Source of the DNA: an uncultured Lentisphaerota bacterium
GTDB lineage: Bacteria; Verrucomicrobiota; Lentisphaeria; Oligosphaerales; CAJXKU01
Direction: 5' to 3'
DNA length: 36,326 bases
NCBI GenBank assembly: GCA_913055945.1
Contig: CAJXKU010000002.1
Span: 1-36,326 of the forward strand
Shown here: one piece after another, positions 12,866 to 36,326 of the stretch
Position numbering within the stretch: the stretch's first letter is position 1
How the letters are laid out: each line of letters starts with the position of its first letter
The notes under the pieces: generated by a model
Seen by the model: only the letters and a program-made list of their open reading frames with translations
Told to the model about the DNA's origin: nothing
Databases searched by the model: none
Translations under genes and position numbers: made by a program

Positions 12866-13056
12866 ACAGCGTGGCTGCTCCTTTTCAGCCTCGATACTTT
12901 ACTACAGTAGAGCGAATGATGTTTTGATTGAGGAAAGAATATACGATTTGAAATCGTCACTTGGACACAGCATAATTGTGCAATACTGGCCGGATTCATC
13001 AATCTGTTTATGTGGCGCGCAATGTAAACAGATAACGAGAAGAGGCGGATTTTCTT

Positions 13057-14535
13057 TCAGCCGTGATGGGATAAATACTCGTGTATTCTTTCCGCTAAAC
13101 GTTCTCCAAGTCCTGGCACGGCTTTGCGGATTTCTTCCGGCTGAGCATTCCTTAAATTCTTAACAGAGCCGAAATATCGAAGCAACTGTTGCCGTCGCTG
13201 GGGTCCAACCCCTTCGATCTCGTCAAGTACGGATTCAGATAATCGTTTACGCCGTAATTGTCTGTGGTAATTTACGGCGAACCGGTGAGCTTCATCCCTC
13301 AGACTCTGCAGAAGCTTCAGTCCTTCGTGTTCTCGAGGAAGCACGAGTGGCTCGGCCTGATCGGGAAAGTAAATCTTCTCTCGTTGTTTCGCAAGCCCGA
13401 TGACGGGCATAGGTTGGACGTCTGCTTCGACCAAGGCTTTTATGACAACGCTGAGTTGGCCGGGTCCGCCGTCCACAACGATTAAATCGGGCATTTCTTT
13501 TCCTCTGTTTGCCTTTCGTTCTCCGGCGTATCGGCGTTTGACGACTTCCGCCAGCATCGCATAGTCGTCCATCCCGGAGACATCACGTATGCGGAAACGT
13601 CTGTAAGCGTTTTTGGCGGGGCGTCCTTTTTTAAAGCAGACCATACTTCCTACCGCCATGCGTCCGCTGATATTCGAAATGTCGAAGCATTCTACGTTTT
13701 CCGGCGGATGCTTTAGCTCCAGCGCGCGCTGCAGCTCGAGCACCATGTGATCCGGATCATCTCCGGTCTGTTGAAGAGTGGTTTTCTCAAACTTTCGCAC
13801 TTGCGGTGTGCAGAGGGATTTGATGTTTGCGATGACATCCCGGAGCCGGGCCGCCTCCTCGAAGCGCTGTTTCTGGACATGTTTCTGCATCTGCTCCTGT
13901 AAGTCGTTGAGGATATCGTCAGTTTCGCCTTGAAGAACTTGAAGAGCGGCCTGTAAACGCTGATCGTATGCTTCATCGGATATCTGCTCAATGCAGGGAC
14001 ATGAACACGCCTGCACTTTACGTTGCCGGCAGTGCCGGTAGGTCGAGGCGTCCGGAAAGCGTGTGCTGCATGTTCGAAGTCCGAAATGCTTGGAGATGAT
14101 TTCCACGGTATTCCGTACCGCCCGAGCGTATGGGAAAGGACCGTAGTACCGTCTGCCGTCCTGGCGCTTTATGCGGGTTAATTGCAGGCGCGGGTATTTT
14201 TCGGAGGCGTCGACAGCAATCAGAAGGAAGCGCTTATCATCCCGCAGTTCGACGTTGTATCGCGGGTGGTAGGCCTTGATCAGTCTTGACTCCAGCAGAA
14301 GTGCCTCCGTTTCAGATTTGACAGGGTGGATCTCGTATTCGTGGATGCTGTTGATCAAAGCACGAAGTTTGGGGTCGGCGCGTCGGTTGCGGCTGGGTTG
14401 GAAGTACGTCGTCAGGCGTTTACGGAGCGACTTGGCCTTTCCCACGTAGATGACGTCCCCCGCACTGTTGCGGAATACATAGACCCCCGGTTTTGAAGGG
14501 ACGTCCTGTGGCTTGAATTGTTCAGGGGCAGGCAC
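13057..14535 (-). CDS. uvrC: excinuclease ABC subunit C
   Basis: GIY-YIG N-terminus (PGVYVFRNSAGDVIYVGKAKSLRKRL), a UVR motif (RFEEAARLRDVIANI), an RNase-H-like endonuclease region (ECFDISN...DLIVVDGGPGQL...GLAK) and a C-terminal HhH (IEGVGPQRRQQLLRYFGS). It is compact at 492 aa, but all domains are present. GTG start. Confidence 0.9.
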   Translation of the reverse strand: MPAPEQFKPQDVPSKPGVYVFRNSAGDVIYVGKAKSLRKRLTTYFQPSRNRRADPKLRALINSIHEYEIHPVKSETEALLLESRLIKAYHPRYNVELRDDKRFLLIAVDASEKYPRLQLTRIKRQDGRRYYGPFPYARAVRNTVEIISKHFGLRTCSTRFPDASTYRHCRQRKVQACSCPCIEQISDEAYDQRLQAALQVLQGETDDILNDLQEQMQKHVQKQRFEEAARLRDVIANIKSLCTPQVRKFEKTTLQQTGDDPDHMVLELQRALELKHPPENVECFDISNISGRMAVGSMVCFKKGRPAKNAYRRFRIRDVSGMDDYAMLAEVVKRRYAGERKANRGKEMPDLIVVDGGPGQLSVVIKALVEADVQPMPVIGLAKQREKIYFPDQAEPLVLPREHEGLKLLQSLRDEAHRFAVNYHRQLRRKRLSESVLDEIEGVGPQRRQQLLRYFGSVKNLRNAQPEEIRKAVPGLGERLAERIHEYLSHHG

Positions 14536-24377: not shown

Positions 24378-24454
24378 GGGGCTGTAGCTCAGTTGGCTAG
24401 AGCGGCACGTTCGCAACGTGCAAGTCAGGGGTTCGAGTCCCCTCAGCTCCACCA
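24378..24454 (+). tRNA. tRNA-Ala (anticodon CGC), CCA encoded
   Basis: Hand-folded cloverleaf: acceptor GGGGCTG/CAGCTCC with the G3:U70 alanine identity pair; D arm GCTC/GAGC; anticodon stem GCACG/CGTGC with loop TTCGCAA; T arm AGGGG-TTCGAGT-CCCCT; 3' ACCA. Confidence 0.95.
24407..24454 (+). repeat. attL core (3' 48 nt of the functional tRNA-Ala)
   Basis: Identical to 35932-35979. Confidence 0.9.
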
Positions 24455-24536
24455 CCTTTTCGCCTTCCCCGCCCTTGATTAACCGTCTTTTCTGTCCTTC
24501 ACTGTCTCTGTCAGTCTACCATATATAAGGCTCTTG

Positions 24537-24628
24537 TAAGTAACTAATAAGTAACCACCCCTGAAACCATCCTATTCGCCTACGTGCGCCCCGACTGGTA
24601 TGTATTCCCGAAGTATTGTAAGTAACCA
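24537..24628 (+). promoter_or_regulatory. cluster of direct TAAGTAAC(C/T)A repeats (candidate integrase arm-type sites, attL side)
   Basis: taagtaact at 24537-24545, and taagtaacca at 24548-24557 and 24619-24628. The last two extend to ~24-nt imperfect direct repeats (taagtaaccacccctgaaaccat / taagtaaccatcctgaaagccat). The same 10-mer recurs at 35883-35892, next to the int promoter. Confidence 0.4.
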
Positions 24629-24727
24629 TCCTGAAAGCCATACAGCGCTTAATCTGGATCACCCGTATAAAACCACCATCAGGACACAAGTTTGCGCTCA
24701 GTGTCGCTCTGTGCGGCTTCTATAAAT

Positions 24728-24761
24728 AAAAAAAGACCGAAACGCTATTAACGCTCCGGCC
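24728..24761 (-). terminator. intrinsic terminator closing the island's leftward transcription
   Basis: The minus strand reads GGCCGGAGCG-ttaata-GCGTTTCGGTC followed by TTTTTTTATTTAT. The 10-bp stem needs three G:U pairs, so it only folds well in the minus-strand transcript. Confidence 0.65.
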
Positions 24762-24787
24762 TGTGATCCTGTATTTTATTTTAGCCT

Positions 24788-24925
24788 TCACTTAAACAGT
24801 TTCTTGAACAGCTTCCCCGTCGTTTTACCTGCTGCCCTGCGTCCAACTCTCCGACCGATCTTGCCTTTGCCGACCGCATTCAGGTCGCCTAACAGCTTTG
24901 CCAGCGTGTAAAGGAAACGTCGCAT
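24788..24925 (-). CDS. 45-aa highly basic peptide (hypothetical; resembles small basic ORFs I have seen in phage genomes)
   Basis: My translation is MRRFLYTLAKLLGDLNAVGKGKIGRRVGRRAAGKTTGKLFKKLFK*. An AAGGA lies ~9 nt upstream of the ATG, and the terminator follows directly. It is below the ORF-track length cutoff. Confidence 0.4.
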   Translation of the reverse strand: MRRFLYTLAKLLGDLNAVGKGKIGRRVGRRAAGKTTGKLFKKLFK

Positions 24926-24957
24926 TACTTTAATCCTTTAGTCGAAACATCTACTGT

Positions 24958-25284
24958 CTATGCGTGATGCCACCACATCAGAAATCGGACGATGATAAAC
25001 CAAATTAGTCCCACGACAATTCCGAGTGTACCAAAAGCAGAAATTCCGGGAGAAGGGTCGTCTCCTGAAAAACCAAACATCACTGCCATAATACTCCCTA
25101 TAATGAGTAGGCAGGAAAGCAATTGCTGTAACTTATAGCGTTTAGATCTCTGTTCAACTGTTTGTATTTTTCCTCCGTGCGCTTGGGTACTTCCCCCGCC
25201 CGTTAACGGGTAAGCACAATTAGGGCAAGTGTCAGCATTGTCAGAAACCTGTTTGTTGCATTCTGGGCAAGTAGTAAGTGCCAT
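24958..25284 (-). CDS. zinc-ribbon membrane protein (2 predicted TM helices)
   Basis: The ATG at 25284 is preceded by gaaaggagacgacaac. The N-terminal ribbon is CPECNKQV...CPNCAYPL. Two hydrophobic helices follow (LLSCLLIIGSIMAVMFGF; FGTLGIVVGLIWFIIVRFLMWW). Confidence 0.6.
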   Translation of the reverse strand: MALTTCPECNKQVSDNADTCPNCAYPLTGGGSTQAHGGKIQTVEQRSKRYKLQQLLSCLLIIGSIMAVMFGFSGDDPSPGISAFGTLGIVVGLIWFIIVRFLMWWHHA

Positions 25285-25384
25285 GTTGTCGTCTCCTTTC
25301 CGTATGATTCGTATTTTTGTATCGGGGCCACGCCCTACGATACTTACAACAAGCAAGCTAACATGTTTTTGAGGGATGTCAAAT

Positions 25385-25669
25385 CTATATATCAAGACCG
25401 CTGCTGCCTTCATCCTCGGCGTTAGCTACCGACTCGAACTGGCGGGCCATTTCGCGAGCGGCCTGGACGGATCCCCGCTCCCGGACTTCCCCCATGAGCG
25501 CCGCGTAAATCACGCTCCGCGCCCGTAACTGCCCGCGTCGGTATGCTTCCATTGCCTCTTTGTCGTTCTCGATGGTACCGGGTTCCAGTTCACATAACCG
25601 CGCTACATCACCCACACTGAACGGCATGGCGCTGTATTTTTCAACGTGTTGTAATGTCTCCGAATCCAT
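25385..25669 (-). CDS. 94-aa HTH-like protein; possible small-terminase-like / packaging-specificity factor
   Basis: The ATG lies 1 nt after the stop of the upstream gene. FSVGDVARLCELEPGTIEN (HTH-like), then EAYRRGQLRARSVIYAALMGEVRERGSVQAAREMARQF, resembles the A.erGra.a...l.......G....a pattern of some small terminase/HTH proteins. This is pattern-level only. Confidence 0.3.
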   Translation of the reverse strand: MDSETLQHVEKYSAMPFSVGDVARLCELEPGTIENDKEAMEAYRRGQLRARSVIYAALMGEVRERGSVQAAREMARQFESVANAEDEGSSGLDI

Positions 25670-25670
25670 A

Positions 25671-26417
25671 TTACACCCCTGCGATTGGGACGTTGACCTT
25701 CTGGGCGTTCAGCAAGTCCCACATCTTCTGAGGCGGCAACCTGTATTTAATAACCTGCGTGCCCCACTTGCGCTGTATTGCCTCGCAGTACGTCTGTTCT
25801 TTCGCCATAGTGCGCTCGCTCACGATCCCGCCCGCGTTATCACCGTGGTCTGTGAAGTAACAGTATTTGTTGAATCGTAGCAACCTTTTGTACCGGCATA
25901 GAACCTGAAGAGAAAAGTCGTAATCATCCTTCGTTCCCATACGTTCATCATATAACAAGTTGTGCTCTAAGTGCCCCTGAAACGGGCCCAGAACCACACT
26001 CGTAAGACTGAAAGGCTTATACTGCTGGTAATTACGACCGTCCTCATTACAATTCACGCCCCAGAATACGCAGCCCCACTCATACGCCAGGTTGAACCCC
26101 TGTTTTATCACGTCGAGGGCAGTCTCCGGGTCGAGGCAAATTTGTTGCTTGCCGCCCTCCGAATGTCCCAGTGCAGAAACATCATCATCTAACATCAACA
26201 ATGGTCGCTCGATATTACGCAGGATCCAGTTCCTTTTACGTGCAATGTTGCGGTCTGATTCGTCGGGAATCACGATCAGACGCTTAGCGCCGACCGTCTT
26301 TGTGTATTGATCCCGCTGGCTCTCAGGAATTACATATTTGGCCGCAGAGAAATAATCTTTGCCCTTCAATCCCTGGGGGCGGTTATAACTCGGTATGCAG
26401 ATATTCAAACCCCGCAT
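25671..26417 (-). CDS. GT-A-like glycosyltransferase, size and motifs reminiscent of the phage TET/JBP-associated (TAGT/GREB1-like) family
   Basis: The ATG at 26417 has GGAGGG 8 nt upstream and overlaps the end of the previous gene by 13 nt. NICIPSYNRP near the N-terminus and LLMLDDDV (DxD-type) fit GT-A logic. 248 aa. Not verified by search. Confidence 0.5.
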   Translation of the reverse strand: MRGLNICIPSYNRPQGLKGKDYFSAAKYVIPESQRDQYTKTVGAKRLIVIPDESDRNIARKRNWILRNIERPLLMLDDDVSALGHSEGGKQQICLDPETALDVIKQGFNLAYEWGCVFWGVNCNEDGRNYQQYKPFSLTSVVLGPFQGHLEHNLLYDERMGTKDDYDFSLQVLCRYKRLLRFNKYCYFTDHGDNAGGIVSERTMAKEQTYCEAIQRKWGTQVIKYRLPPQKMWDLLNAQKVNVPIAGV

Positions 26418-26896
26418 AGTATCAACCCTCCGACCGCTTTGCAGTCCTGTAATGCCCGCAGGCACCGTGTCATTGTGAGTAATGTCTCTCCGAAGTCGTC
26501 AAACAGCAATACCCGCTGCTCTGTCACGTCCGCTGCCAGTTCTGTCTTGTAATCCTGTAACTTTGCACCCCGCCAGCAACGTGTTTTTCTATTCGCCGGC
26601 GCAAAGACTGTCTCAAAGTCGATGTTCAGCCAGCGTGCAACTCGTGTCCCGATCCACTCAGCGAACGGAACGCCGTCTGCACTTGCCGGTGGAACCGTCA
26701 CCATATCAAAGCGCCCGCCTAAAAAATGCTGTATCACCCGACGTGGCGCCTCGATAAGGTCGGCGTCTGATTCTTGTTTACGCTTTAATCGCATCAGTTC
26801 ACGCTTAGCTTTTATATTGCGTCCTGAATACACCGCTCGAAACCGTATGCCGTCGCGAAATTGGCTATAGAAAGGATGTCCTACGTCAACTATCAC
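26405..26896 (-). CDS. ComF-like phosphoribosyltransferase-fold protein with a degenerate PRPP-binding loop
   Basis: MVTVPPAS... / ...RVLLFDDFGETLLTMTRCLRAL aligns by eye to the ComF/PRTase layout (ivpVP ... vlLvDDVxTTGxT), but the TTG phosphate-binding residues are replaced. The likely GTG start at 26896 is preceded by GGAGAGG and overlaps the ParB-like stop. The ORF-track TTG start is at 26929. Confidence 0.45.
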   Translation of the reverse strand: MIVDVGHPFYSQFRDGIRFRAVYSGRNIKAKRELMRLKRKQESDADLIEAPRRVIQHFLGGRFDMVTVPPASADGVPFAEWIGTRVARWLNIDFETVFAPANRKTRCWRGAKLQDYKTELAADVTEQRVLLFDDFGETLLTMTRCLRALQDCKAVGGLILCGV

Positions 26897-27506
26897 CTTG
26901 TAGCCTCTCCAATACCTTTGAACCGTCAATGACCCGACCCGTGCCCGTAGGCTGGTTTTTCCGGGGAATAAGGTCTTTCACTTGCTTCAGTCCGAGCTTG
27001 TCCATTGCCACCTGCCAGTCCATCGGGTTGCTGAAGTACAGAACCACATAGTTATGCTCGAGCAACAACTCTTCGCTGAATTCGACCTCTGCCTGTTCTT
27101 CCGGCTCGGCTGCCTGCTGGCTTTCCGCAAAGATGGCGTTGAGTTCGTCTTGCGGAAACCCCCATCCTTCCAGCTCCTGCTTCTCGAAAAACTCGGCGAG
27201 TGCCTTGTCGTCGAATTCGCCAGTGTTACGATTGAGCCGGATGTTTAACTCCCGTTCCCTGTCGCGGTCAAGCTCCACCTCGACGCAAGGTATCGTATCG
27301 TGTCCGAGTTCCTGCCATATCCGTAGACGCTGGTGACCACCGATTACTATATTTCGGCGATCTTCGTGTGTGTTCACGATGATGGGATCCACACAACCAA
27401 ACCTCTGCATTGAATCCCGCAGAGCTTTTTCGTCCTCTTTGCCCAACGTGCGCGGGTTGTACTCGCTTTCGACCAATTCTTTGATACTCCGTTCTTTGAT
27501 CTGCAT
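26886..27506 (-). CDS. ParB/Srx N-terminal-domain protein (of the type usually fused to phage DNA methyltransferases), no partner enzymatic domain
   Basis: IKELVESEYNPRTL...ALRDSMQRFGCVDPIIVN...IVIGGHQRLRIWQELGHDTIP matches ParB-N (ParBc) motifs. I chose the ATG at 27506. The acidic/helical C-terminal half has no recognisable catalytic motif. Confidence 0.7.
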   Translation of the reverse strand: MQIKERSIKELVESEYNPRTLGKEDEKALRDSMQRFGCVDPIIVNTHEDRRNIVIGGHQRLRIWQELGHDTIPCVEVELDRDRERELNIRLNRNTGEFDDKALAEFFEKQELEGWGFPQDELNAIFAESQQAAEPEEQAEVEFSEELLLEHNYVVLYFSNPMDWQVAMDKLGLKQVKDLIPRKNQPTGTGRVIDGSKVLERLQGDS

Positions 27507-27554
27507 ACATACCCCCAATGAAAGGGGCGCCCCGAAGAGCGCCCCGGTTTGTGT

Positions 27555-27749
27555 TTACGCCGACGGTCGGTTGCCGGTGCCCTTCGCGTACTTCGCTGCC
27601 ACGTCACGTATTGCCTCGGCAATTAGCCGGGCAGTCTCTTCGGGCTTTTCAGCGACGGCTTTCCGATCACGGCACAGCTCTTTGAAATGCTCTGCCATTC
27701 CGTTCGCCAGTCCTTGTCTGTAGCCTTCGTTGTACGTCTTCTCTGCCAT
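27555..27749 (-). CDS. 64-aa hypothetical protein
   Basis: The ATG at 27749 has AGGAGG 9 nt upstream. Sequence MAEKTYNEGYRQGLANGMAEHFKELC..., helical. The longer ORF-track version (to 28034) overlaps the upstream gene out of frame. Confidence 0.5.
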   Translation of the reverse strand: MAEKTYNEGYRQGLANGMAEHFKELCRDRKAVAEKPEETARLIAEAIRDVAAKYAKGTGNRPSA

Positions 27750-27780
27750 TGTTTCGATCCTCCTGTTTGTTTGTTTTTGT

Positions 27781-28173
27781 TTAGATGCCCGGAGGTTCTG
27801 TGTAACCTGGGGGCCTCGCATCCTTACCTTGTTTGCTATCCGCCGGCTGTGCGGGTGGACTCTGCACATCACCGACCGGCGGCAGTGACTCGCGCCGCCC
27901 GGACGTCGCCTTCTCGCGCTTACCGCTGGACACGGATACCTTTCGCTGATTACGTCCTCGCTTTTTCTTGCCCCGCTGCGCCATAAGTGCATCGAATGAG
28001 GCAGGCGGAATTTCCCGTGTCCGAAAAACCGCAATGAGCTTATCCGGTGAACATGTCGCGCACCAATGTTCGCAATGTCTGGTGTGATCCTTCAGTCGCA
28101 GTGCTTTCAATGTCGCCGTTTCGTACCCGCCGCACTTCGGGCATTGTTGTGGTTTGTGCAGTGCATCTTCCAT
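27781..28173 (-). CDS. zinc-ribbon protein with a basic disordered tail (possibly Ogr/Delta-like)
   Basis: CPKCGGYETATLKALRLKDHTRHCEHWCATC, followed by KKKRGRNQRK...GKREKATSGRR. The ATG lies 1 nt after the upstream stop. Confidence 0.5.
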   Translation of the reverse strand: MEDALHKPQQCPKCGGYETATLKALRLKDHTRHCEHWCATCSPDKLIAVFRTREIPPASFDALMAQRGKKKRGRNQRKVSVSSGKREKATSGRRESLPPVGDVQSPPAQPADSKQGKDARPPGYTEPPGI

Positions 28174-28174
28174 A

Positions 28175-29116
28175 TTATGCCTCCGTATACAGTTTGTTGA
28201 GTCGCGTACTGCGTGCCCTTTTGCATTGCCCGGAACACGTCAACTGCCCTTTTTCGCGGGACACCGCCGCTGAACACTCTGAACATTCTGCGGAGAACAT
28301 CTGGTTTCTGAACCGCCAATAGTGGTCACGCACCCAATCAACTGCATCGGGCTCCCAGCCGCAACATGGAACCCCGAGCGATATTTCGTGCGTTTGCGTA
28401 TGCTTGATCCGCTGCCGCTCTGACCGCTTGGCTTTGCCGTAAACCTGCACGCATTCCTTGATCTCCGCATTAGACGGCTCCGGGACGTCCATCATGTCGG
28501 GCACTGCGTCCTTATCTTCGGCAATCGCACGGCCTTGCTCGGTCAAGGCATAGTACGTGTTACCCATTGCGTCACCAGCTACCTGCACCCACCCGCGCGC
28601 TGCTACCGACGTCATATCGAAGATGGTGTTGAACAGAATTGTTTCATCCCGTGTTCTGCGTGCTTTAGACGAGAAACCCCACTCCGGGACACCCGCAACT
28701 CCCCAAAAAGGAAGCCAGCGCTTGTCCTGAAACTCGATGCAGATCGGCGTCTCGGACTCGTAGGCCGCCATGTCTTCGAGATACATGCACAGGCAATCGA
28801 CTGGCCCCTGCTGGAGGAACATTTCGCAAGCCTGAAAGCCCTGTTCACTGAACCGAACCGACTGCACAGACCTGTCCGCGCCAGTGGTTTGGACGAGCTG
28901 CTTATCCAGCAACGCTCGTAACGCCCGATGCCGCTTTTGGCGCTCGTTTGCGTCCCCGCCACTCGAAGCAACCGTGATTCCACCTCCATTTGAGTATTGC
29001 ACCCTCGCAGCTTGCCTTTTACACTCGAAGTCCCTGCTGCCATCCGGCTGGGGTGGCTCATATACCGCATCCAACCTACCTTTTAACTCGATCAGAAGTT
29101 GTCTGGTATTGTTCAT
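28175..29116 (-). CDS. 313-aa hypothetical protein with a C-terminal Cys cluster
   Basis: Long ORF with an ATG start and gacaggagc upstream. C-terminal CSECSAAVSREKGQLTCSGQC. No family recognised. Confidence 0.6.
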   Translation of the reverse strand: MNNTRQLLIELKGRLDAVYEPPQPDGSRDFECKRQAARVQYSNGGGITVASSGGDANERQKRHRALRALLDKQLVQTTGADRSVQSVRFSEQGFQACEMFLQQGPVDCLCMYLEDMAAYESETPICIEFQDKRWLPFWGVAGVPEWGFSSKARRTRDETILFNTIFDMTSVAARGWVQVAGDAMGNTYYALTEQGRAIAEDKDAVPDMMDVPEPSNAEIKECVQVYGKAKRSERQRIKHTQTHEISLGVPCCGWEPDAVDWVRDHYWRFRNQMFSAECSECSAAVSREKGQLTCSGQCKRARSTRLNKLYTEA

Positions 29117-29146
29117 ATTTTTTTGCTCCTGTCACAATTTGCCGAC

Positions 29147-29180
29147 AAAAAATACCCGACTGTCGCTTGTCGCACTCGGG
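29147..29180 (-). terminator. intrinsic terminator between the 183-aa and 313-aa genes
   Basis: The minus strand reads CCCGAGTG-cgacaagcga-CAGTCGGG (7 bp plus 1 mismatch) followed by TATTTTTTGT. It ends about 30 nt before the 313-aa gene ATG. Confidence 0.5.
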
Positions 29181-29327
29181 CGTTCGTTTTATCGAGCGAA
29201 GGACCCAACAGGGGGGGTGAAAAGGTGGTCGAAGCAGAACTGCAATCCTACAAACAGTTCCGCCCCGACCCGCCGCATCGCTCCTACGTGCCGGCTGGTT
29301 AACGGCGTCGGCCACGATGCGACAACT

Positions 29328-29879
29328 TCATTCACTCACGCTCGCCACCTGCAACTTCTTAGCCTGCAGTAAACTACGCGCATACTCCAGTGCTTTCGGG
29401 TCGTTCATGCGGCGTTCGCCTGCATCGCGCAAAGATTCCGAAGCGAGATTCGCGTTTTTGACACGCTCGGCATCCTGTGCCACTACTTGCGCGTGCCCTT
29501 TTTCCAGACCGTCATTGCACAGCGATTTTACCGTTTCGTTATACGCCTTTTCGCGCTCTTGCCGCAACCGTTTGCCCTCCGCAGAGCGATCACGATACAA
29601 CAATTCGTGCAACTCCGGCAACATCGTCCTGGCTTCGACTTCTGAAGCCAAAGCACGCAACTCAGCATCCTGCACCGCCTGCCCAGCTTTCCGAATGTCT
29701 GCCGGGTCCACCATCTCGACGATGCTGTCGCGCGCTTCTTCCACTTCCTGCTCGGCATTCGCAACGTCTTTGACGTACTCATTGAACATTTTCAGCTTCT
29801 CTCGGGACTCCTGAGACATCCATCCTTGCCGCGCAATCTGTTTCAGTTCTGCTTCTGCGTTCGCGAGTTGAATTGCCAT
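29328..29879 (-). CDS. 183-aa coiled-coil hypothetical protein
   Basis: ATG with gacaggagatagaca upstream. Highly charged helical sequence rich in E/A/R/K/Q. No family recognised. Confidence 0.6.
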   Translation of the reverse strand: MAIQLANAEAELKQIARQGWMSQESREKLKMFNEYVKDVANAEQEVEEARDSIVEMVDPADIRKAGQAVQDAELRALASEVEARTMLPELHELLYRDRSAEGKRLRQEREKAYNETVKSLCNDGLEKGHAQVVAQDAERVKNANLASESLRDAGERRMNDPKALEYARSLLQAKKLQVASVSE

Positions 29880-30008
29880 TTGTCTATCTCCTGTCTTCTG
29901 TTTGTTGTTACCCCCCCGGTCTATTTCGAGAACCGCATCCGGCGGCTTCCCCAGGGGGGATGATTTTGTGTCAGCCTTGCCGTAAATATTGGCAAAGCAA
30001 CCCTATTG

Positions 30009-30036
30009 AAATTATCTGCATCGCCGCCATTGCCAA
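30009..30036 (-). promoter_or_regulatory. candidate sigma70-type promoter for the 183-aa gene unit
   Basis: The minus strand reads TTGGCA (30031-30036), a 16-nt spacer, then TAATTT (30009-30014). A G/C-rich structured leader (cccccctgg...ccggggggg) follows. Confidence 0.35.
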
Positions 30037-30053
30037 TAGAATAAATAACATTG

Positions 30054-30509
30054 TCACACCTCCAACTTTGCTTTGAATTCTTGACACTGCCGGAAGAATT
30101 GCCGTAGAATTTGCAAGGTTGCTGTCGCTGCATGTTTCGTATCCGTCGCCCAAACAAACGGCACAGAATACCGAATCTGCCACGAAGAAACCGATGCTAT
30201 TAAGCACTGGGGCTTCAGTTGGCTTCTATACCGCCCCTGAACCGCGTCCTCGAAAGTCGCTTCGACTACAACCGCCCGGCATCGGTACGCCTGAAGACGA
30301 TGCAGTTCCGATCTGAACCGCTGCCGGTTGCTGTTCGTACAACATGAAACCAAGTCGGGCAGGCTCTTGCGCTCGACGGCGCATAATTCCTCGAGACCGC
30401 TCAGCGAATAATCGCCTGCACCCAATGTCCCGACCTGAACGCTGACCCCAACAGGAAATTGAAGAGGATCCTGTTCACGCGAGTCTTGAATTATTGCTGG
30501 CAACTCCAT
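30054..30509 (-). CDS. ERCC4 (XPF/Mus81/Hef-like) nuclease-domain protein
   Basis: IIQDSREQDP...GDYSL...AVERKSLPDLVSC matches the ERCC4 D.RE / GDY / ERK.x.DL signature. The start overlaps the primase stop (TGATG). Confidence 0.7.
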   Translation of the reverse strand: MELPAIIQDSREQDPLQFPVGVSVQVGTLGAGDYSLSGLEELCAVERKSLPDLVSCCTNSNRQRFRSELHRLQAYRCRAVVVEATFEDAVQGRYRSQLKPQCLIASVSSWQIRYSVPFVWATDTKHAATATLQILRQFFRQCQEFKAKLEV

Positions 30510-31660
30510 CAGTTCAGCCCCTCTGCTCTCAATGCTTCAGCGTCGCTCATACCGCCGTCCACTGTCCGTATTGCCAGACGTTCCAACTGTTCAACCGAAA
30601 AGCGCTCTTCCCATTCCTCCGGGAACGGCTGTATCGTGTTTTGCGTCTTTGTACGCTCACTAATCCCCAGACCTGTGCAGACCCATCGTCTGACCACGCC
30701 CTGCATGTCGCCGCAATCCTTCCCGACCGGCAACCACCGCTGCGTATTGTTCAACCGTACCTGCCACCAACCCGCCGCCTTCATTCCTGCGTCGTCTCTG
30801 TCGAAGGAAAGCAGAACCAACGGAGAAGCGGACAATCGATAAACCCACTTTTGAACCCGTGAACCAGTGCTTGCCCCCGTGGCGACCGGCGTTACCAAGT
30901 CCTCGGCCGCCTGTTCAATGAGAATGGCGTCGAGTTCGCCTTCAACCAGCACCGCCGGTTTGTCTGTACCCAACGTATCAGCGTTGAATAAGCCATTCCT
31001 GAAGCCACGCGGCCCCATGTACTTGTTACCGTTCCCCGGCTCCGGGCGCCTAACGTTCAACCGCCAGACCGTGCCGTCGATCCACCAAGGAATTACGAGT
31101 CCCGCCGGGAGAAAGACATCTTTTGCGTTTTCGTTTGTAGGCAGCCCCCAGTCTTCAGGCTTGTAATACTGATCCCGTGCGTTCCAACCGAGCCCCCACC
31201 GTTGTGCAGTGTCTTGTGTTATTCCGCGGGAGTGTAGGTATTCGCGCCCGGCTTTGCCCGAATTGTCCCACAAACGGTTTTTCGCGCTTATTGCGACTGC
31301 TTCAGCTTTCGCCGCCCACGTCTCCGTAGGCTTCTCAGATTGTTTGAGAGGCGCCCTCTTTGAACGCTGCAATGGCATATTTGCGCTCTGGGGCACGTCA
31401 CCGCCGCTTAACCGCTCGCAGGCTTCCTGAAAGGACACCCCCTCATATTCTTGTATGAAAGCGATGGCGTCACCACTCCAACCGCACCCCAAACAGTGGC
31501 ATAGCTTCGCGTTTCCCCGTACAATTCCGAACGACGGGTTGCGATCCTTATGAAACGGGCAGTGCCAATGTCCTGACCGTGCAGGCTTGCCCAGCTTGCG
31601 GATAAGTACGCTTTCAAGGCTGTGCTTCTCTAACAAACTTTCTGTATCTATCGTTGTCAT
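30509..31660 (-). CDS. DnaG-like primase (CHC2 zinc finger + Toprim)
   Basis: HCPFHKDRNPSFGIV...CLGCGWSGDAIAF is a CHC2 finger, and VLVEGELDAILIEQ / SFDRDDAG are Toprim acidic motifs. I chose the ATG at 31660, preceded by GGAGG. The ORF-track extension to 31777 is translated iterons (KWFTWFTWFT). Confidence 0.8.
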   Translation of the reverse strand: MTTIDTESLLEKHSLESVLIRKLGKPARSGHWHCPFHKDRNPSFGIVRGNAKLCHCLGCGWSGDAIAFIQEYEGVSFQEACERLSGGDVPQSANMPLQRSKRAPLKQSEKPTETWAAKAEAVAISAKNRLWDNSGKAGREYLHSRGITQDTAQRWGLGWNARDQYYKPEDWGLPTNENAKDVFLPAGLVIPWWIDGTVWRLNVRRPEPGNGNKYMGPRGFRNGLFNADTLGTDKPAVLVEGELDAILIEQAAEDLVTPVATGASTGSRVQKWVYRLSASPLVLLSFDRDDAGMKAAGWWQVRLNNTQRWLPVGKDCGDMQGVVRRWVCTGLGISERTKTQNTIQPFPEEWEERFSVEQLERLAIRTVDGGMSDAEALRAEGLN

Positions 31661-31676
31661 ATAAACCTCCGAATTA

Positions 31677-31783
31677 GTGAACCAAGTGAACCAAGTGAAC
31701 CATTTACCTTTTTTATGTTTGATAATGTTTCTATGGGAAAAAAACAGAAAGAGGGTCACTTCATTCACTTCATTCACTGTGAA
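31677..31783. other. candidate replication origin: inverted iteron sets flanking a 52-nt AT-rich spacer
   Basis: gtgaaccaa gtgaaccaa gtgaaccat (31677-31703); then ttaccttttttatgtttgataatgtttctatgggaaaaaaacagaaagaggg; then tcacttcat tcacttcat tcactgtga (31756-31782). The GTGAA core therefore occurs 3x on each strand, ending in the palindrome ttcactgtgaa (31773-31783). Confidence 0.6.
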
Positions 31784-33422
31784 TGAGAGTCAACCCCCTG
31801 TAAACCTTTTTCCCGCCCGAACCGCGACTACTCTCGAACCCTCTCTCTTTAACCGCGAGTCCGAAGTTACGCTGGTTTAACACTCCGAAGCCTCCATGCT
31901 CTGCCCAGCTTTTGTAGGCTTGGTAAAGTTCGCTACTTGATACTGACAACTCCCTTGACTGCTCGCAGCACTCTTCCAGAAAAATCCCTACTACGTCTTG
32001 CTCGTTTCGGTACTCATTCGTAGCTCTTTCCACCGCGTTAGGCATTCCAAGCCCCTTGTCCTGCCATTCGCGGCAACCGTCAACCGCCCAGCGCAGAACG
32101 CCGGGCAATTCCTGCGTGAGCTTGTACGCAAGGTTCGGGTCGCGTTCTGAATTCTCAAACCGTGCCGTAAACGGAACCAACCTCACCCGTCGCCAGATAC
32201 CTTCATCAGTCCCGTTTATCTGGGGCTTGTGGTTACAGGCGAGCCATAACTTGAACTCCGGGTTGAACTCGAAGCTGTTCTGGTGGAGGAACCGCGCTGT
32301 AATAGGTTCGCCGCCCGTCGCGTCCTTAACAAAGGATTCGTCTAAACGGTGCCCCTTTGCCGTCTCTGAAGTCGTAGCAAAACGGGCGCCCCTTAACCGT
32401 GCGCGGTCTTCAGGGATCCTGCCCGTGTCGCGAGCGGTAAACGCTTCTATGTTTGTATGCAGTGCCAAGGGACCCAACGCTGCCCGCAAAGTATTCAGAA
32501 ACGTGGACTTGCCGTTTGCCCCGATCCCATACAGGATGAAGAACACCTGCTCGGATATGTCACCCGTGAGGCTATAACCGACTGCTCTATGAATAAAATC
32601 GATTAACTCCGCGTCTCCCTTAAATACCTCATTCAGGAATTGCTCCCACCGCGGGCATGTTGCCTGGGGGTCATATTTCAAAGGCAGGACGTGTGTTATA
32701 AAATCATCACGGCGATGTTGCCGCAGTTCTCCTGTGCGCAAGTCAATCGTGCCGTTTTTGCAGTTCACAAGCCACGGGCTGCGGTCGAACTTGTCCACCG
32801 TGAGTGTCATACCGGGCTCCGCGGCTGCAAGGTTCAACATTGCCCCGCGTCGCCGCTCTTCCAACGACTTATTAGCCCACTTGAGCAGTTGCTCTTGTCG
32901 TTTCTGTTCTTCCTCAGACTGAGCGCTCAGTTCAAAACACTCCGCTCGAATGGCGTCTGATACCTGCGAGGTCAACCCCAGCACATAATTTTCATTGTCC
33001 GGCTGCCAGTGCGTTCCCGCCCACCGATACCAGCACTTTGCCTCAGTTACGAAACGCAGGTCACGCCCTGCCATATCAACAAGGCGCCGGGCGTTGCCCG
33101 TGTCCGTTTGCGTATATTCACGCTGGGGCTGTTCTGGACTACTTCCGCTTAACGCTGCGAGTCCTTTCGCGTCGTTCTGTAAAGCATTCCGCATAAAGTC
33201 GCGTCGCTGTTCTATGTCGTTTATCCGAAGTGCCTCCGTTGCCAAGTCCGCATATTCATCCGAAACGCCCTCGCTGGTATTGGCGCCGTCGAATATCTGA
33301 GCCAAAACGTTGGCATTCTCTCTGTCACCCGCTATATTATTATTAACGGTTGTCGCCGTCGCCTCTTCATTTACCCCGTTGGCATTCCCCAGCGGGGTTT
33401 TTTCTTGTGTGTCCCTACTCAT
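31770..33422 (-). CDS. P4/D5-family SF3 helicase (phage/plasmid primase C-terminal-domain type)
   Basis: GNARRLVDMAGRDLRFV...WYRWAGTHWQPD; PWLVNCKNGTIDLRTGELRQHRRDDFIT; CPRWEQFLNEVF; and Walker A ILYGIGANGKSTF. These are typical of the P4-alpha/D5 helicase module. The ATG at 33422 has GGGAGG upstream and overlaps the previous gene by 8 nt. Confidence 0.85.
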   Translation of the reverse strand: MSRDTQEKTPLGNANGVNEEATATTVNNNIAGDRENANVLAQIFDGANTSEGVSDEYADLATEALRINDIEQRRDFMRNALQNDAKGLAALSGSSPEQPQREYTQTDTGNARRLVDMAGRDLRFVTEAKCWYRWAGTHWQPDNENYVLGLTSQVSDAIRAECFELSAQSEEEQKRQEQLLKWANKSLEERRRGAMLNLAAAEPGMTLTVDKFDRSPWLVNCKNGTIDLRTGELRQHRRDDFITHVLPLKYDPQATCPRWEQFLNEVFKGDAELIDFIHRAVGYSLTGDISEQVFFILYGIGANGKSTFLNTLRAALGPLALHTNIEAFTARDTGRIPEDRARLRGARFATTSETAKGHRLDESFVKDATGGEPITARFLHQNSFEFNPEFKLWLACNHKPQINGTDEGIWRRVRLVPFTARFENSERDPNLAYKLTQELPGVLRWAVDGCREWQDKGLGMPNAVERATNEYRNEQDVVGIFLEECCEQSRELSVSSSELYQAYKSWAEHGGFGVLNQRNFGLAVKERGFESSRGSGGKKVYRGLTLIHSE

Positions 33423-33741
33423 AACTAACACCTCCCTTCATCACCGTCTCCACGTCTTCCGAGTGGAAGCGCAGTGACTTTCGACTGCTGGTCAGGTAAA
33501 CCGCTCGCAGCGTGCCCGCGTTCCGCAGACGATGCACAGTTTTTGTGCTACAGTTCAACTTCCACGCCACCTGCTGCACAGTGAGAAGGTGCGTTTCTTT
33601 TGGCGAGGTGTCGTTCTCTCCATCCTGCGATTTTCTTGCGAGGCGCACCAATTCGTTAAACTGATCCGCGGGAATAATCCCGCTCTCTACTGCGGGCTTG
33701 CAGAATTGTCTTACGTTCTGAATAGTGCTCTTCGTAATCAT
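33415..33741 (-). CDS. excisionase-family / MerR-like HTH DNA-binding protein
   Basis: LLTVQQVAWKLNCSTKTVHRLRNAGTLRAV is a Xis/AlpA-type HTH. It has an ATGA start/stop overlap with the upstream XRE gene. Confidence 0.55.
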   Translation of the reverse strand: MITKSTIQNVRQFCKPAVESGIIPADQFNELVRLARKSQDGENDTSPKETHLLTVQQVAWKLNCSTKTVHRLRNAGTLRAVYLTSSRKSLRFHSEDVETVMKGGVSYE

Positions 33742-33971
33742 ACTGCACCTCCAGACCCCTCTTCAGGGAAAATGTCTTGAGGTGAGCAGTGGAGTGCTTG
33801 AGCGAGTAGGTAAGACGTAACACGTTGGGCAGTACGTTTGCCGTTCAAGATGTCCGAAACCGTGGTCACGGCGAGCCCCGTCTGTCGGGCAAGATCGGCG
33901 CCCGTCACGCCCTGTCGTTTCATGGTAGTGGCAAGTTTGACGTTCGGTGTGGGGTTGTTGCGCTGTGTCAT
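33738..33971 (-). CDS. XRE/Cro-cI-type HTH transcriptional regulator
   Basis: MKRQGVTGADLARQTGLAVTTVSDILNGKR...LAQAL is a classic HTH_3 pattern. The ATG at 33971 has AAGGAGG 5 nt upstream. Confidence 0.75.
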   Translation of the reverse strand: MTQRNNPTPNVKLATTMKRQGVTGADLARQTGLAVTTVSDILNGKRTAQRVTSYLLAQALHCSPQDIFPEEGSGGAV

Positions 33972-33992
33972 TTTAGCCTCCTTCCCCCGGCC

Positions 33993-34036
33993 AAAAAAAA
34001 GCGACGAGCCGAGGTTGTTTCCTCGAACTCGCCGCC
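33993..34036 (-). terminator. strong intrinsic terminator immediately upstream of the XRE regulator RBS
   Basis: The minus strand reads GCGGCGAGttCGAGG-aaacaa-CCTCGgCTCGTCGC (about 13 bp with a small internal loop) followed by TTTTTTTT. The T-tract ends 21 nt before the ATG at 33971. Confidence 0.65.
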
Positions 34037-34106
34037 ACAGTCGCAACGTGAGTTAGGTTTTAATTACCGTGAATTACTGCCTGAAATCAGACAATGATCC
34101 CGGTTG

Positions 34107-34319
34107 TTAAGTCGTTGTGCAAGTTATTGTCGTAGTGTGTGTGCCGTGCTCCATTATATATTCATCTTTGCCTTCGGGTATGGATTTTGCCTTTGTTGCC
34201 CGTCGGTGCGTTTTCTCGTGGTTCTCTCTACAACACACCAAACCGCGTTCCAAACGATTGGCATGGACAAACCGACCGCAACCGGGCTTTGCGCATATTG
34301 TTTTGTCGCTGTCTGTCAT
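34107..34319 (-). CDS. 70-aa Cys-rich hypothetical protein (leader gene of the regulatory unit)
   Basis: The ATG at 34319 has gagagaagg upstream and lies ~25 nt downstream of a near-consensus promoter. It contains CAKPGCGRFV...CCRENH. The C-terminal tail is low-complexity (HGTHTTTITCTTT). Overlapping plus-strand ORFs show no signals. Confidence 0.45.
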   Translation of the reverse strand: MTDSDKTICAKPGCGRFVHANRLERGLVCCRENHEKTHRRATKAKSIPEGKDEYIMEHGTHTTTITCTTT

Positions 34320-34348
34320 AAATAAACCTTCTCTCTTATTATTACTAT

Positions 34349-34377
34349 ACTATATGTAATTTTTTTCGATTTGTCAA
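34349..34377 (-). promoter_or_regulatory. near-consensus sigma70-type promoter (TTGACA-17-TATAGT)
   Basis: The minus strand reads TTGACA (34372-34377), a 17-nt spacer aatcgaaaaaaattaca, then TATAGT (34349-34354). The -35 lies inside an imperfect hairpin (ttgtcaac...gttgtgacaa, 34371-34396). Confidence 0.55.
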
Positions 34378-34484
34378 CCCCAACATGTTGTGACAACGTT
34401 TTTTTCGACACCCTCGCTCTATCTCGCACCCCACCCCGATTTTGCCTTTCAGATTGCCGCTTTAACGCCGTCAAAAGTGTTTTT

Positions 34485-35792
34485 TTACGTGTTCTGATCT
34501 TGAGCATGTTTGAGCATATCTCTCACTTCTCCAATGGGGAGACTGTCTACCAACTCGTGCAATCGTTCGCGTTCAGGATCTTTTGTCTGCGGACTTTCCC
34601 CCGGCCCGGATGTCAACTTCGGCAACTGGTCGAAGCCAGTAATAAGCGTGTCACCCAGTCCCGCCCGAATGTAGTACTGATCCGTAGTCTGAATCGAGTC
34701 TCCAAGCATTCGTGCCAGCCATACGCTCTTGCATCCTGCCATTGCCGCCTGAGTGGCGAATGTTGCCCGCAGGCTGTGGGCGCCGTATGCTGACCTTTGG
34801 ACTTTGCGTTGTCCGTGCGTTTCGTTGTGCTTTTTGCCGTCGCCAGCTACCTGCTGCACAAGAGTTACGATCCGTTTATGAATCGCATCCGCGTTTCGTT
34901 CGTACTGCTCGACAAGCCCCGGAAAGAGGTAATCTTGATCGTTACCCGCCATGCTTTCCAATGTAATAATTTCGTTATATAACGGCTGTAAAAGCGGCAC
35001 TTCAGCTTCCTTGCCCTTGCTTCCTGTTTTGCGTGGCGTGTAAGTCAACGCCCCGCGATTAAGGTCGATGTTATGCCAGCACATTGTAACCGCATCAATG
35101 AGTCGCGTGCCCGCGTACAGGCACATCTTTACCACAATCCGGCATTCGTTCGGGCAGGGCAGGTCGACGTGTGGTTCATCAAGTTTCTGCAGTAATGCCG
35201 TCACCTGCTGGCAGGATAATGGGAGACGCTTTTGTTTCGTTTCTGTTTTGCGCAGGCTGGGGTCGTGCCACTTGTTTTCGGCGATCCCGTATTTATTCGC
35301 CAGCGCTTTCGTGATATGTCCCAAGCTGTTTTTCTTGTAATGATACGTGTTCGCGCTTATTCCGCTCTCCCAAAGGTGCTGACAATACTCTGCGGCTATA
35401 TCCCCGGATACATCCGTGAACGATGTAATCACCGGGTAATTACTCTGTAGCCATTCGATAAACTCATTCAGGTGCCTTTTGTAATTGCCGAGCGTGCCCT
35501 GACTTGCCGAGGGGTTTGTCTGCATGAATGCCGTCCATACATCCCCCAAGGGCAGGTCTTTTTGTTGCATGAGCTTTTTAGCTTTCGCAGCTTCATGGAG
35601 GACGTCTGCCTTGTCTTTCGCCGCCACCCCGCGCTGAAGATCCTCTGCCTGTTTTTGCGCTTCAGCTTTATTACGAGTTCTGAGGCTTTTCTTGTGGCGC
35701 TTGCCGTTCGCATCAGACCACCAGAAATAAAACATCCCGTTCGCTGCCTTGCTGATAGTGCCGCTTCCCCGTGAACGCCGTTTCCTACTCAT
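34485..35792 (-). CDS. int: tyrosine recombinase / phage-type integrase
   Basis: The ATG at 35792 is preceded by AAGGAG. The N-terminal arm-binding-type region is GTISKAANGMFYFWWSDANGKRHKKSL. Catalytic motifs are GTRLIDA (Arg I), AHSLRATFAT (H-x-x-R) and LGDSIQTTDQYY (Tyr). It lies adjacent to attR. Confidence 0.9.
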   Translation of the reverse strand: MSRKRRSRGSGTISKAANGMFYFWWSDANGKRHKKSLRTRNKAEAQKQAEDLQRGVAAKDKADVLHEAAKAKKLMQQKDLPLGDVWTAFMQTNPSASQGTLGNYKRHLNEFIEWLQSNYPVITSFTDVSGDIAAEYCQHLWESGISANTYHYKKNSLGHITKALANKYGIAENKWHDPSLRKTETKQKRLPLSCQQVTALLQKLDEPHVDLPCPNECRIVVKMCLYAGTRLIDAVTMCWHNIDLNRGALTYTPRKTGSKGKEAEVPLLQPLYNEIITLESMAGNDQDYLFPGLVEQYERNADAIHKRIVTLVQQVAGDGKKHNETHGQRKVQRSAYGAHSLRATFATQAAMAGCKSVWLARMLGDSIQTTDQYYIRAGLGDTLITGFDQLPKLTSGPGESPQTKDPERERLHELVDSLPIGEVRDMLKHAQDQNT

Positions 35793-35849
35793 GGTTGCAA
35801 CTCCTTTATTTTGTCGTTTTGAGCTACTGGCTGTCCTTCTCAGTACAGT

Positions 35850-35892
35850 ACTATAAAGCATAAAATAAAGAAATGCAACCAATAAGTAACCA
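35850..35892 (-). promoter_or_regulatory. candidate int promoter (TTGCAT-17-TATAGT) with an adjacent TAAGTAACCA arm-type repeat
   Basis: On the minus strand the -35 is TTGCAT (35873-35878), the spacer is 17 nt, and the -10 is TATAGT (35850-35855). The 10-mer taagtaacca at 35883-35892 sits just upstream of the -35. Confidence 0.4.
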
Positions 35893-35931
35893 ATATGTCT
35901 GTTTATCGCATTACGTCACCGTGTCTGCTAT

Positions 35932-35979
35932 ACGTTCGCAACGTGCAAGTCAGGGGTTCGAGTCCCCTCAGCTCCACCA
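35932..35979 (+). repeat. attR core (orphan 3' tRNA-Ala fragment)
   Basis: Identical to 24407-24454. It has no 5' tRNA half upstream (preceded by ...gtgtctgctat). Confidence 0.9.
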
Positions 35980-36294
35980 TGATTTTTCCTTCCCAGCCCT
36001 TGATTAACCGTCTTTATTGTCCTTCATGTTTTTGTCCAGTCAGACTGGATAGATAAAACGCTAACCAATCCGATACTGAAGCGTCCTTACAGGATGCAAT
36101 TGTTGGCGGCGTTCTTCCCCCCCAGGCTGGCGCCTGGGCTTCCGGCTCGCAGAGCCTACAGCTCGGAGAGGCTACGGTGAATCGGCCCCTTCGGGGCCTT
36201 ATACAATCTTCAATCATTGAATAGCGAATTGCTGGATGCTGAAGCATGAACGCCGACAAGTCGAAGATCTGAACTGAGCTCTATTACATCCTTA

Positions 36295-36326
36295 ATCCTA
36301 ATCGCAATCCTAATCGCAGTCTTAAT
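36295..36326. repeat. 12-nt tandem repeat running into the window edge
   Basis: atcctaatcgca atcctaatcgca gtcttaat..., also preceded by the related tccttaat. Confidence 0.6.

Follow-up and report, generated by a model that had tools for sequence, protein, structure and literature searches.

Structure and boundaries of the island

We have analyzed a stretch of 36,326 nucleotides (nt), hereafter the window, which corresponds to positions 1 to 36,326 of contig CAJXKU010000002.1 in the GenBank assembly GCA_913055945.1 of an uncultured Lentisphaerota bacterium. The window contains an island of 11.5 kb, inserted at a tRNA-Ala(CGC) gene and carrying genes for integration, regulation and replication together with a cassette resembling DNA-modification genes of phages. 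An initial annotation, made from the sequence alone, had interpreted the island as a helper-dependent phage satellite or a related element, and the present analysis has followed up this interpretation.

The intact tRNA-Ala(CGC) gene (24378-24454, plus strand) was found by ARAGORN and by Rfam (68.8 bits) and is the sole tRNA gene of the window. Its 3' 48 nt (24407-24454) constitute the attL core, and a partial copy of the tRNA 3' half at 35932-35979 (plus strand) constitutes the attR core, beyond which host DNA follows. The two cores are a perfect direct repeat with a spacing of 11,525 bp, and a perfect repeat of this length is far beyond chance. The similarity extends 47 nt beyond the tRNA end, giving 95 nt at 92% identity in total, a feature absent from the initial annotation; the island-internal part of this extended att homology (24455-24501, no strand assigned) is about 85% identical to the host DNA at 35980-36026 after attR. 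The attP thus also included a stretch similar to the host DNA on the downstream side of the tRNA. A second island in tandem, suggested by the 47-nt similarity, was ruled out, because contig L123, which runs 1.7 kb past the window, contains non-coding repeats and then a host gene with pantothenate-kinase (CoaX)-like motifs, read from the translation. Host genes thus flank the island on both sides.

In a related island described below (L113), att homology also exceeds the tRNA 3' end, by 18 nt (1465-1482 versus 13181-13198), and the regions downstream of the window tRNA and the L113 tRNA have a common CCCCGCC..GATT-like motif. The homology past the tRNA ends in both islands suggests either capture of the host flank by attP or a conserved element downstream of tRNAs in the host.

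Both junctions recur at 100% identity to the window in two other assemblies, attL being spanned by contigs L109 and L124 and attR by L028 and L123 (L028 and L109 are contigs of ENA ERZ27241914, and L124 is a contig of JGI 3300027580). The junctions are real, and the assembly artefact that the initial annotation had mentioned as a danger is dismissed. Exact look-ups of flank and island proteins returned only the same island, in the two other assemblies, and a megablast search with the island matched none of the GenBank phages or PLSDB plasmids.

The gene of a tyrosine integrase (34485-35792, minus strand) adjoins the partial tRNA copy and reads in the direction of the intact tRNA. Its product matches Pfam Phage_integrase (PF00589, 4e-11) and phrog_1 (3.8e-36), and the R, HxxR and Y catalytic residues are present. 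Four copies of the octamer TAAGTAAC are present in the 36-kb window, where 0.47 are expected, and each lies at most about 170 nt from one of the two cores. Three copies are found just inside attL (at 24537, 24548 and 24619, within 24537-24626, plus strand), and a fourth copy of this TAGTAAC type is found between the integrase start and attR (35883-35890, plus strand). No shuffle among 100 gave four copies, and the octamers are best read as putative integrase arm-type sites.

All 17 credible genes between the repeats are on the minus strand, as are all island features given below by window coordinates alone; their open reading frames (ORFs) are uninterrupted, and catalytic motifs are present. 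The same gene set was obtained when genes were called independently on L028 and L109. The architecture initially proposed, namely a perfect 48-nt repeat of the tRNA 3' half bounding 11,525 bp, about 17 genes on one strand and an integrase distal to the intact tRNA and transcribed inward from attR, has therefore been confirmed.

Regulatory and replication genes

The best sigma-70-like promoter match (34349-34377; 11 of 12 positions, by consensus match only) lies upstream of a regulatory and replication operon. The gene of a 70-amino-acid (aa) Cys-rich protein (34107-34319) has a homologue at the same position in L113 (3332-3583), and the two Cys-rich proteins encoded after the integrases have the same unusual C-terminus, ...TCTTT. 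It is followed by an XRE/Cro-type helix-turn-helix (HTH) regulator (33738-33971, a 77-aa gene call; HTH_3/HTH_26, about 5e-8) and an HTH_17 protein of AlpA/Xis type (33415-33741; HTH_17, 2.8e-9; phrog_66), which is 60% identical to its counterpart on L117.

The replication genes begin with a superfamily 3 (SF3) helicase/initiator of the "phage/plasmid primase, P4 family" type (31770-33431), which has D5_N (1.4e-39), DUF5906 and a Pox_D5 C-terminal domain. This family has more than 6,000 homologues. BLASTP aligned the island protein with P4 alpha at 24% identity over 360 aa (E 1e-13), covering the helicase and the C-terminal part, and its nearest relatives (53-62% identity) occur in small contexts of integrase, HTH_17 and primase/helicase genes, once with ERCC4. 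A DnaG-type primase with a CHC2 zinc finger and Toprim (30509-31660, the likely start being the ATG at 31660; Zn_ribbon_DnaG, 7.6e-16; Toprim_2) and an ERCC4-type nuclease (30054-30509; ERCC4, 4.9e-12), in which the GDY...ERK motif is present, are encoded downstream. The catalytic motifs of primase, helicase and ERCC4 nuclease are visible in the sequence, and the domain matches in Pfam and PHROGs agree with what had initially been read for the integrase, both HTH proteins and the three replication enzymes.

About 110 nt separate the helicase stop (31770) from the primase ATG (31660). On the coding strand, this putative origin (31661-31790) is composed of three AGTGA-type repeats, an AT-rich spacer of about 52 nt and three copies of TGGTTCACT. 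The island iterons and the annotated P4 ori type-1 repeat GGTGAACA, taken from the GenBank P4 record, have a GTGAAC core in common. An ori-like iteron site had been noted here before, and the gap indeed has the classic look of an iteron origin that would be served by an alpha-type initiator.

Orphan genes and the search for virion, lysis and conjugation genes

Four genes without assigned family (ORFans) follow the replication genes: a 183-aa protein rich in charged residues (29328-29879), a 313-aa protein (28175-29116), a 130-aa protein (27781-28173), in which a Cys4 zinc ribbon at the N-terminus and a tail that is basic and of low complexity were recognized by reading of the sequence, and a 64-aa protein (27555-27749), which is supported by a gene call on L109 and has no family match. 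The 183-aa protein is homologous to proteins of 181 aa on L113 and 182 aa on L117, with scores far above those of shuffled sequences, and homologues of the 313-aa protein are found on L113, L117 and L120. These two genes are regarded as signature genes of a family of islands, as explained below.

The 313-aa protein deserved particular attention because it is the only ORFan of at least 250 aa and thus the sole one of capsid size. A word-indexed search found no homologues of it; 17 relatives were recovered when 1.84 billion representatives were scanned in full with HMMER. The single-sequence AF2 model had a predicted local distance difference test (pLDDT) value of 36, and AlphaFold2 with the alignment gave a pLDDT of 81 and a predicted template modelling score (pTM) of 0.75, with two winged-helix domains in tandem followed by helices; the C-terminal segment is Cys-rich. 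The family profile matches MarR-type winged helices in PDB (9e-4). Foldseek searches of the model against PDB and BFVD gave nothing significant, and the top-ranked, non-significant entries were winged-helix proteins such as JetB, MukE, ScpB and MarR, none of them an HK97-type capsid. The 313-aa protein was therefore rejected as a capsid, on account of the confident tandem winged-helix model and the lack of any capsid-like match. A role as RepA-like initiator was also considered, for which Foldseek likewise gave no significant match.

Searches of all island proteins against Pfam, PHROGs, NCBIfam and PADLOC gave no match to capsid, portal, terminase, tail, lysis, relaxase, type IV coupling protein (T4CP) or defence families. 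The earlier remark that no capsid, portal, tail, large-terminase or lysin motifs could be recognized was thus borne out at profile level, and neither of the two outcomes that would have changed the classification was obtained: no capsid or terminase homologue indicating a small prophage, and no relaxase or T4CP gene indicating an integrative mobilisable element (IME).

An IME may nevertheless depend on the transfer apparatus of others. The island would then excise and replicate in the same manner and be transferred, via an unrecognised oriT, by a conjugative element of the host rather than by a phage. The integrase, the excisionase-like protein and the replication module are present and a packaging gene is absent, as this explanation expects, and many small relaxase-less islands are reportedly mobilised in trans (review PMC11389934). 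Against this, no relaxase, T4CP or other conjugation family was matched, and the helicase/primase, ERCC4 and ParB-TAGT genes all have phage relatives, the last being a packaging-proximal phage module. We consider the IME explanation unlikely.

A cassette of phage-type DNA-modification genes

A GC-rich, terminator-like hairpin (27524-27545) separates the core genes from a cargo operon, which ends at an intrinsic-terminator-like hairpin with a 13-bp stem and a T run (24734-24762). The first cargo gene encodes a 206-aa protein with a ParB N-terminal domain (26886-27506) and the third a 248-aa GT-A DNA glycosyltransferase of the TAGT family (25671-26417), which matches PF20691 with 50.0 bits (gathering cut-off 27.5) and phrog_842 with 8e-20. 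The motifs R...DDD...(E/D)DY are those of phage GT-A DNA glycosyltransferases (bioRxiv 10.1101/2023.12.21.572611), and the catalytic motifs R...DDD...DDY are visible in the island protein as ARKRNW, LDDDV and KDDYDF. Between the two genes lies that of a 163-aa protein with a type-I phosphoribosyltransferase (PRTase) fold (26405-26896), an accessory to the ParB-TAGT pair; the PDB matches listed for its family profile (best 5e-4) are proteins of this fold, for example OPRT, HGPRT, APRT, PyrR and PRPP synthetase.

The ParB-TAGT pair is conserved in viruses. In all 17 IMG/VR loci with a TAGT of 51-64% identity (L011-L027), a ParB-N gene lies immediately upstream of the TAGT gene, and terS, terL and portal genes lie downstream of it wherever the contig is long enough. 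The same order of ParB, TAGT and terminase genes is found in Streptococcus phage Javan291 (L121 5405-7200) and Clostridium phage CS266P4 (L122 5328-7325). The PRTase-fold gene also occurs in four of the phage loci, and other neighbours are GT2, radical SAM, UDP-galactopyranose mutase and cytidylyltransferase genes. Among the 25 commonest neighbour families of the 17 loci, TET/JBP, C5-methyltransferase and hydroxymethylase families are absent.

A 2026 study reported that a phage thymine dioxygenase is activated on double-stranded DNA by a ParB homologue that has no DNA-binding domain, and that the genes most often found next to those of such dioxygenases encode glycosyltransferases, ParBs and terminases (PMC13229309). 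By analogy, we infer that the island ParB may serve the glycosyltransferase as that homologue serves the dioxygenase. The gene order points to a phage origin of the cassette, which looks like a phage-type, packaging-proximal DNA-modification module. No earlier report of a ParB/PRTase/TAGT DNA-glycosylation cassette on such an island was found in the searched literature.

Three small genes complete the cargo. An ORFan of 94 aa (25385-25669) sits where terS lies in phages with the same cassette; only two further clusters of it exist among 5.8 billion proteins, one of them on L113 (71% identity), and it gave only insignificant hints to a "transcriptional activator" PHROG. It is followed by a 108-aa zinc-ribbon protein (24958-25284), with a C-terminal hydrophobic segment recognized by sequence reading, and by a gene for a highly basic peptide of 45 aa (MRRFLYTLAKLLGD...; 24788-24925), 91% identical in L113.

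The 45-aa gene is the best conserved DNA of the islands (87-92% identity versus about 75% for TAGT; window 24788-24925, L113 10592-10729, L114 4159-4260), and a second, partial copy is present in L113 0.8 kb downstream (11430-11510). Recent exchange may account for this conservation, or a signal carried by the DNA itself, for example a packaging site.

The initial annotation had pointed to satellites as hotspots for defence genes. This idea was not supported, since PADLOC detected no defence system on the island and the cargo is instead the ParB-N/PRTase-fold/TAGT cassette. A modification or immunity role may be considered in another form, in which the island is a chromosomal element acting mainly in the resident cell, the ParB-TAGT genes modify host or invading DNA, and mobility is only occasional. 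The cassette is insulated by terminators and could be expressed alone, ParB homologues occur in DNA-hypermodification gene clusters (PMC13229309), and L113 additionally has a HicA-like toxin and a DUF3467 gene. This explanation is nonetheless improbable in view of the negative PADLOC result, the absence from the island of an enzyme making the acceptor base, and the fact that the cassette in phages belongs to the phage genome beside the packaging genes; moreover, a 6.5-kb relative without the cassette indicates that the cassette is not the reason for the existence of the family.

Related islands at other tRNA genes

At least two related islands exist, one found by following a cluster of 94-aa homologues (L113) and one by following a homologue of the 313-aa protein (L117/L118). 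The L113 island, from the same sample as L028 and L109, has a length of 11,716 bp and is located in tRNA-Gly(GCC) with a perfect repeat of 45 nt (63 nt at 92%). Its integrase differs from that of the window (26% identity) and adjoins the tRNA, and its replicase is of the DUF3854/AAA_25 type. Homologues of the Cys-rich, 183-aa, 313-aa (37% identity), ParB (52%), TAGT (81%), 94-aa (71%) and 45-aa (91%) proteins are all encoded. Past the cassette, L113 has extra cargo (10779-12874) coding for a DUF3467 protein, the HicA-like toxin (PF07927, 4e-6), a 149-aa protein and a 209-aa protein whose N-terminus looks like that of a secreted protein.

The L117/L118 island has only 6,476 bp, bounded by a 54-nt repeat of tRNA-Ala(GGC). 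Its integrase and AlpA-like protein are 39% and 60% identical to those of the window, and the integrase is distal to the intact tRNA, as in the window. A PolA-like/PDDEXK replication module and the 183/313 pair are present, and the ParB-TAGT cassette is absent. On L117, a second tyrosine integrase gene (3185-4474) is located back-to-back with the integrase gene of the island, just outside the partial tRNA repeat; this gene could be a remnant, or part of an adjacent element that uses the same tRNA-Ala(GGC) hotspot. In L120, a distant relative of the 313-aa protein is encoded directly after a DUF5906 primase-helicase.

Since L113 and L117/L118 occupy other tRNA genes, the island belongs to a mobile, modular family. 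The DNA of the segment from ParB to the 45-aa gene is 75-92% identical between the window and L113, and the core genes are not alignable as DNA. Judged from these comparisons, the family core consists of integrase, regulators, an exchangeable replicase and the 183/313 pair, and the ParB-to-45-aa segment is an add-on next to the att end. Small islands with an integrase, an AlpA-type regulator and a primase/helicase are common, and this general kind is already known; the signature genes and the exchangeable replicases of the present family are new.

These relatives also bear on the possibility that the island is a prophage remnant, namely what remained of a temperate phage, its early (left) arm with the genes from integrase through ParB-TAGT, once the region between terminase and lysis had been deleted. 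The order of integrase, regulators, replication, ParB and TAGT genes is that of complete phages just before terS and terL, as this explanation requires. Such decay is very unlikely, however, for an element whose att copies are both perfect and whose ORFs are intact with catalytic motifs in 17 of 17 cases, all the more because two other compact islands with the same signature genes lie at different tRNA genes with intact repeats of their own. In addition, IMG/VR lacks the 183/313 pair and the 94-aa and 45-aa genes, as judged from scans for the 313-aa, 94-aa and 45-aa genes.

Host DNA

The host proteins FabF, TrpB, PlsX and FabG (window 1-24300) are singletons or near-singletons when 15 billion proteins are clustered at 90%, and a flanking dihydroorotate (DHO)-dehydrogenase-like protein matches GTDB species representatives at no more than 43% identity, across many phyla. 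The host lineage is thus very poorly sampled.

A dispersed repeat of about 100 nt, with copies 80-91% identical, occurs at the left window end (1-105), just past the right one (L123 1359-1466 and 1559-1655) and in L113 (16630-16734), and a 12-nt tandem repeat, AATCCTAATCGC, is present at the right window end (36294-36326). The repeats probably explain the contig breaks at the window ends, and the dispersed repeat, being common to both, may indicate that one genome, or two closely related ones, gave rise to L113 and the window.

Interpretation and significance

The sequence shows the island to be a bounded, intact element able to integrate and replicate, without machinery for its own transfer. 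We interpret it as an 11.5-kb site-specific integrative, self-replicating and helper-dependent element, the helper being most likely a phage, i.e., a satellite-like "hitcher" of an undescribed family, and assign to this interpretation a probability of roughly 55%. The satellite label is reasonable, helper dependence being inferred from the absence of transfer genes. The three other explanations treated above, a trans-mobilised IME, a prophage remnant and a resident modification island, are less well supported.

Part of the life cycle can be read from the sequence. The tyrosine integrase recombined attP, carrying the 3' half of tRNA-Ala(CGC), into the host tRNA, which produced the 48-bp duplication with TAAGTAAC arm-type repeats on both inner flanks. 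An operon starting at the strong promoter-like site codes for the small Cys-rich protein, the XRE regulator and the AlpA/Xis-type protein, followed by the replicon, composed of the P4-alpha-type SF3 helicase with its C-terminal DNA-binding domain, the separate DnaG-type primase, the ERCC4 nuclease and the presumed iteron/AT-rich origin. The 183-aa/313-aa pair comes next, conserved in related islands whatever the replicase, and past the terminator lies the cassette of ParB-N, PRTase-fold, TAGT, 94-aa, zinc-ribbon and 45-aa basic peptide genes. Upon induction, the element would excise, replicate from its own origin and be packaged into helper-phage virions, with helper-interaction functions that may be provided by the 183/313 pair, the 94-aa protein or both. 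If ParB recruits or activates the glycosyltransferase on double-stranded DNA, as the dioxygenase activator would suggest, the DNA of the element could emerge from the cell carrying sugars and resistant to restriction, the sugars probably being attached to hydroxylated bases for which the island has no enzyme of its own.

Several points weigh against the satellite interpretation. Neither an empty attB nor a circular attP junction was found by exact protein look-ups and a JGI metagenome scan with the att pattern, which returned only occupied attL and attR, or by a GTDB scan, which gave no close relative of the host. Our searches identified no helper phage, cos or pac site, small terminase, or gene for capsid size or packaging redirection; the 94-aa protein, tried as a small terminase, has no detectable TerS similarity, either in hhalign against the phage TerS-like family or in matches to TerS families. 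No domain match to 5mYOX/TET (Tet_JBP) or a hydroxymethylase was obtained in the island, which leaves the sugar acceptor unexplained. The 6.5-kb relative speaks against a fixed packaging size, and mobilisation via an unrecognised oriT is compatible with the absence of conjugation genes.

A more far-reaching proposal, which we regard as speculative and doubtful, is that the island is the founding member of a new phage-satellite family, in which the 183-aa and 313-aa proteins form a conserved helper-interaction module and some members have captured a ParB-activated GT-A cassette to sugar-coat their own DNA before packaging. The acceptor bases would be provided by the helper, or the acceptor chemistry would be one not yet described; the latter alternative is raised because no hydroxylase accompanies this ParB-TAGT clade even in phages. 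If this proposal were true, the island would be the first satellite with its own DNA hypermodification.

Current satellite finders use hallmark genes from Proteobacteria and Firmicutes, and this island and its relatives would therefore be missed by them. The island family is a concrete example of satellite-like diversity in uncultured lineages, and the two new signature genes could help to find more members. The ParB-TAGT cassette ties hitchhiking elements to DNA hypermodification, which has so far been treated as a phage trait, and if the island DNA is glycosylated, anti-restriction strategies reach satellites. The recurrence of a two-gene ParB-TAGT unit before terminase genes, with no visible hydroxylase partner, poses the question of the substrate of this glycosyltransferase clade.

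Comparison with known satellites and other elements

SatelliteFinder defines P4-like satellites by seven core components, of which at least five are required, and phage-inducible chromosomal islands (PICIs) by five, of which at least four are required (PMC10085698). The island has three of the seven P4-like components (integrase, alpha-type helicase and AlpA/Vis-type regulator) and three of the five PICI components (integrase, regulator and primase-replicase), as scored by Pfam and PHROGs matches and by BLASTP/phmmer against P4 proteins. It is similar to P4 in size (11.5 kb versus 11,624 bp), in the tyrosine integrase acting at the 3' end of a tRNA gene with arm-type repeats, in the alpha-homologous helicase, in the iterons with a GTGAAC core like that of GGTGAACA, and in the cargo region at one end. 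Pfam and PHROGs gave no match to Sid, Psu, Delta or Epsilon, and alpha was the only P4 protein matched by BLASTP/phmmer. The primase of the island is a separate DnaG-type gene downstream of the helicase, whereas in P4 it is the N-terminal domain of the helicase, and an XRE protein takes the place of the P4 immunity region; no Rfam family except the tRNA, and thus no P4-type C4 RNA, was found in the window. The hosts also differ, being a poorly sampled lineage here and Enterobacteriaceae for P4-like satellites.

With PICIs the island has in common the succession of integrase, AlpA-type regulator, primase/replicase and accessory genes, the size of about 10-15 kb and the absence of tail, holin, portal and other structural genes. 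It differs from PICIs in having no detectable small terminase, Rpp-type packaging redirection, capsid-morphogenesis gene (Cpm/Ppi/Rpp-type) or divergent Stl-type repressor. It differs from capsid-forming PICIs (cfPICIs) and small prophages in having no match to major capsid, portal, large terminase or head-tail connector, and from integrative mobilisable or conjugative elements in having no relaxase and no T4CP or type IV secretion system (T4SS) family in Pfam or NCBIfam.

The cassette resembles the phage clusters of 5mYOX, ParB and glycosyltransferase genes in the adjacency of a ParB-N protein to a TAGT/GT-A enzyme with R...DDD...(E/D)DY motifs, and in the co-occurrence with terminases in phages (PMC13229309; bioRxiv 10.1101/2023.12.21.572611). 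Unlike those clusters, it is located on a non-viral island, has a PRTase-fold gene between ParB and the glycosyltransferase, and is accompanied by no 5mYOX/TET dioxygenase, C5-methyltransferase or thymidylate-synthase-like hydroxymethylase. Tycheposon-like elements, attributed to Hackl et al. 2023, reportedly combine a tyrosine recombinase, tRNA targets, primase/helicase replication modules, cargo at one end and module swapping among several related elements, traits in which they would resemble the island.

The initial classification as a satellite or related island was upheld as far as it concerns an integrative element that is discrete and equipped for integration, regulation and replication, a P4-alpha homologue and a mobile family, while membership of the PICI (three of five) or P4 (three of seven) type was not. 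In its predicted integration, regulation and replication, the island is like P4 and PICI satellites, yet on the basis of its gene content it is a member of neither family.

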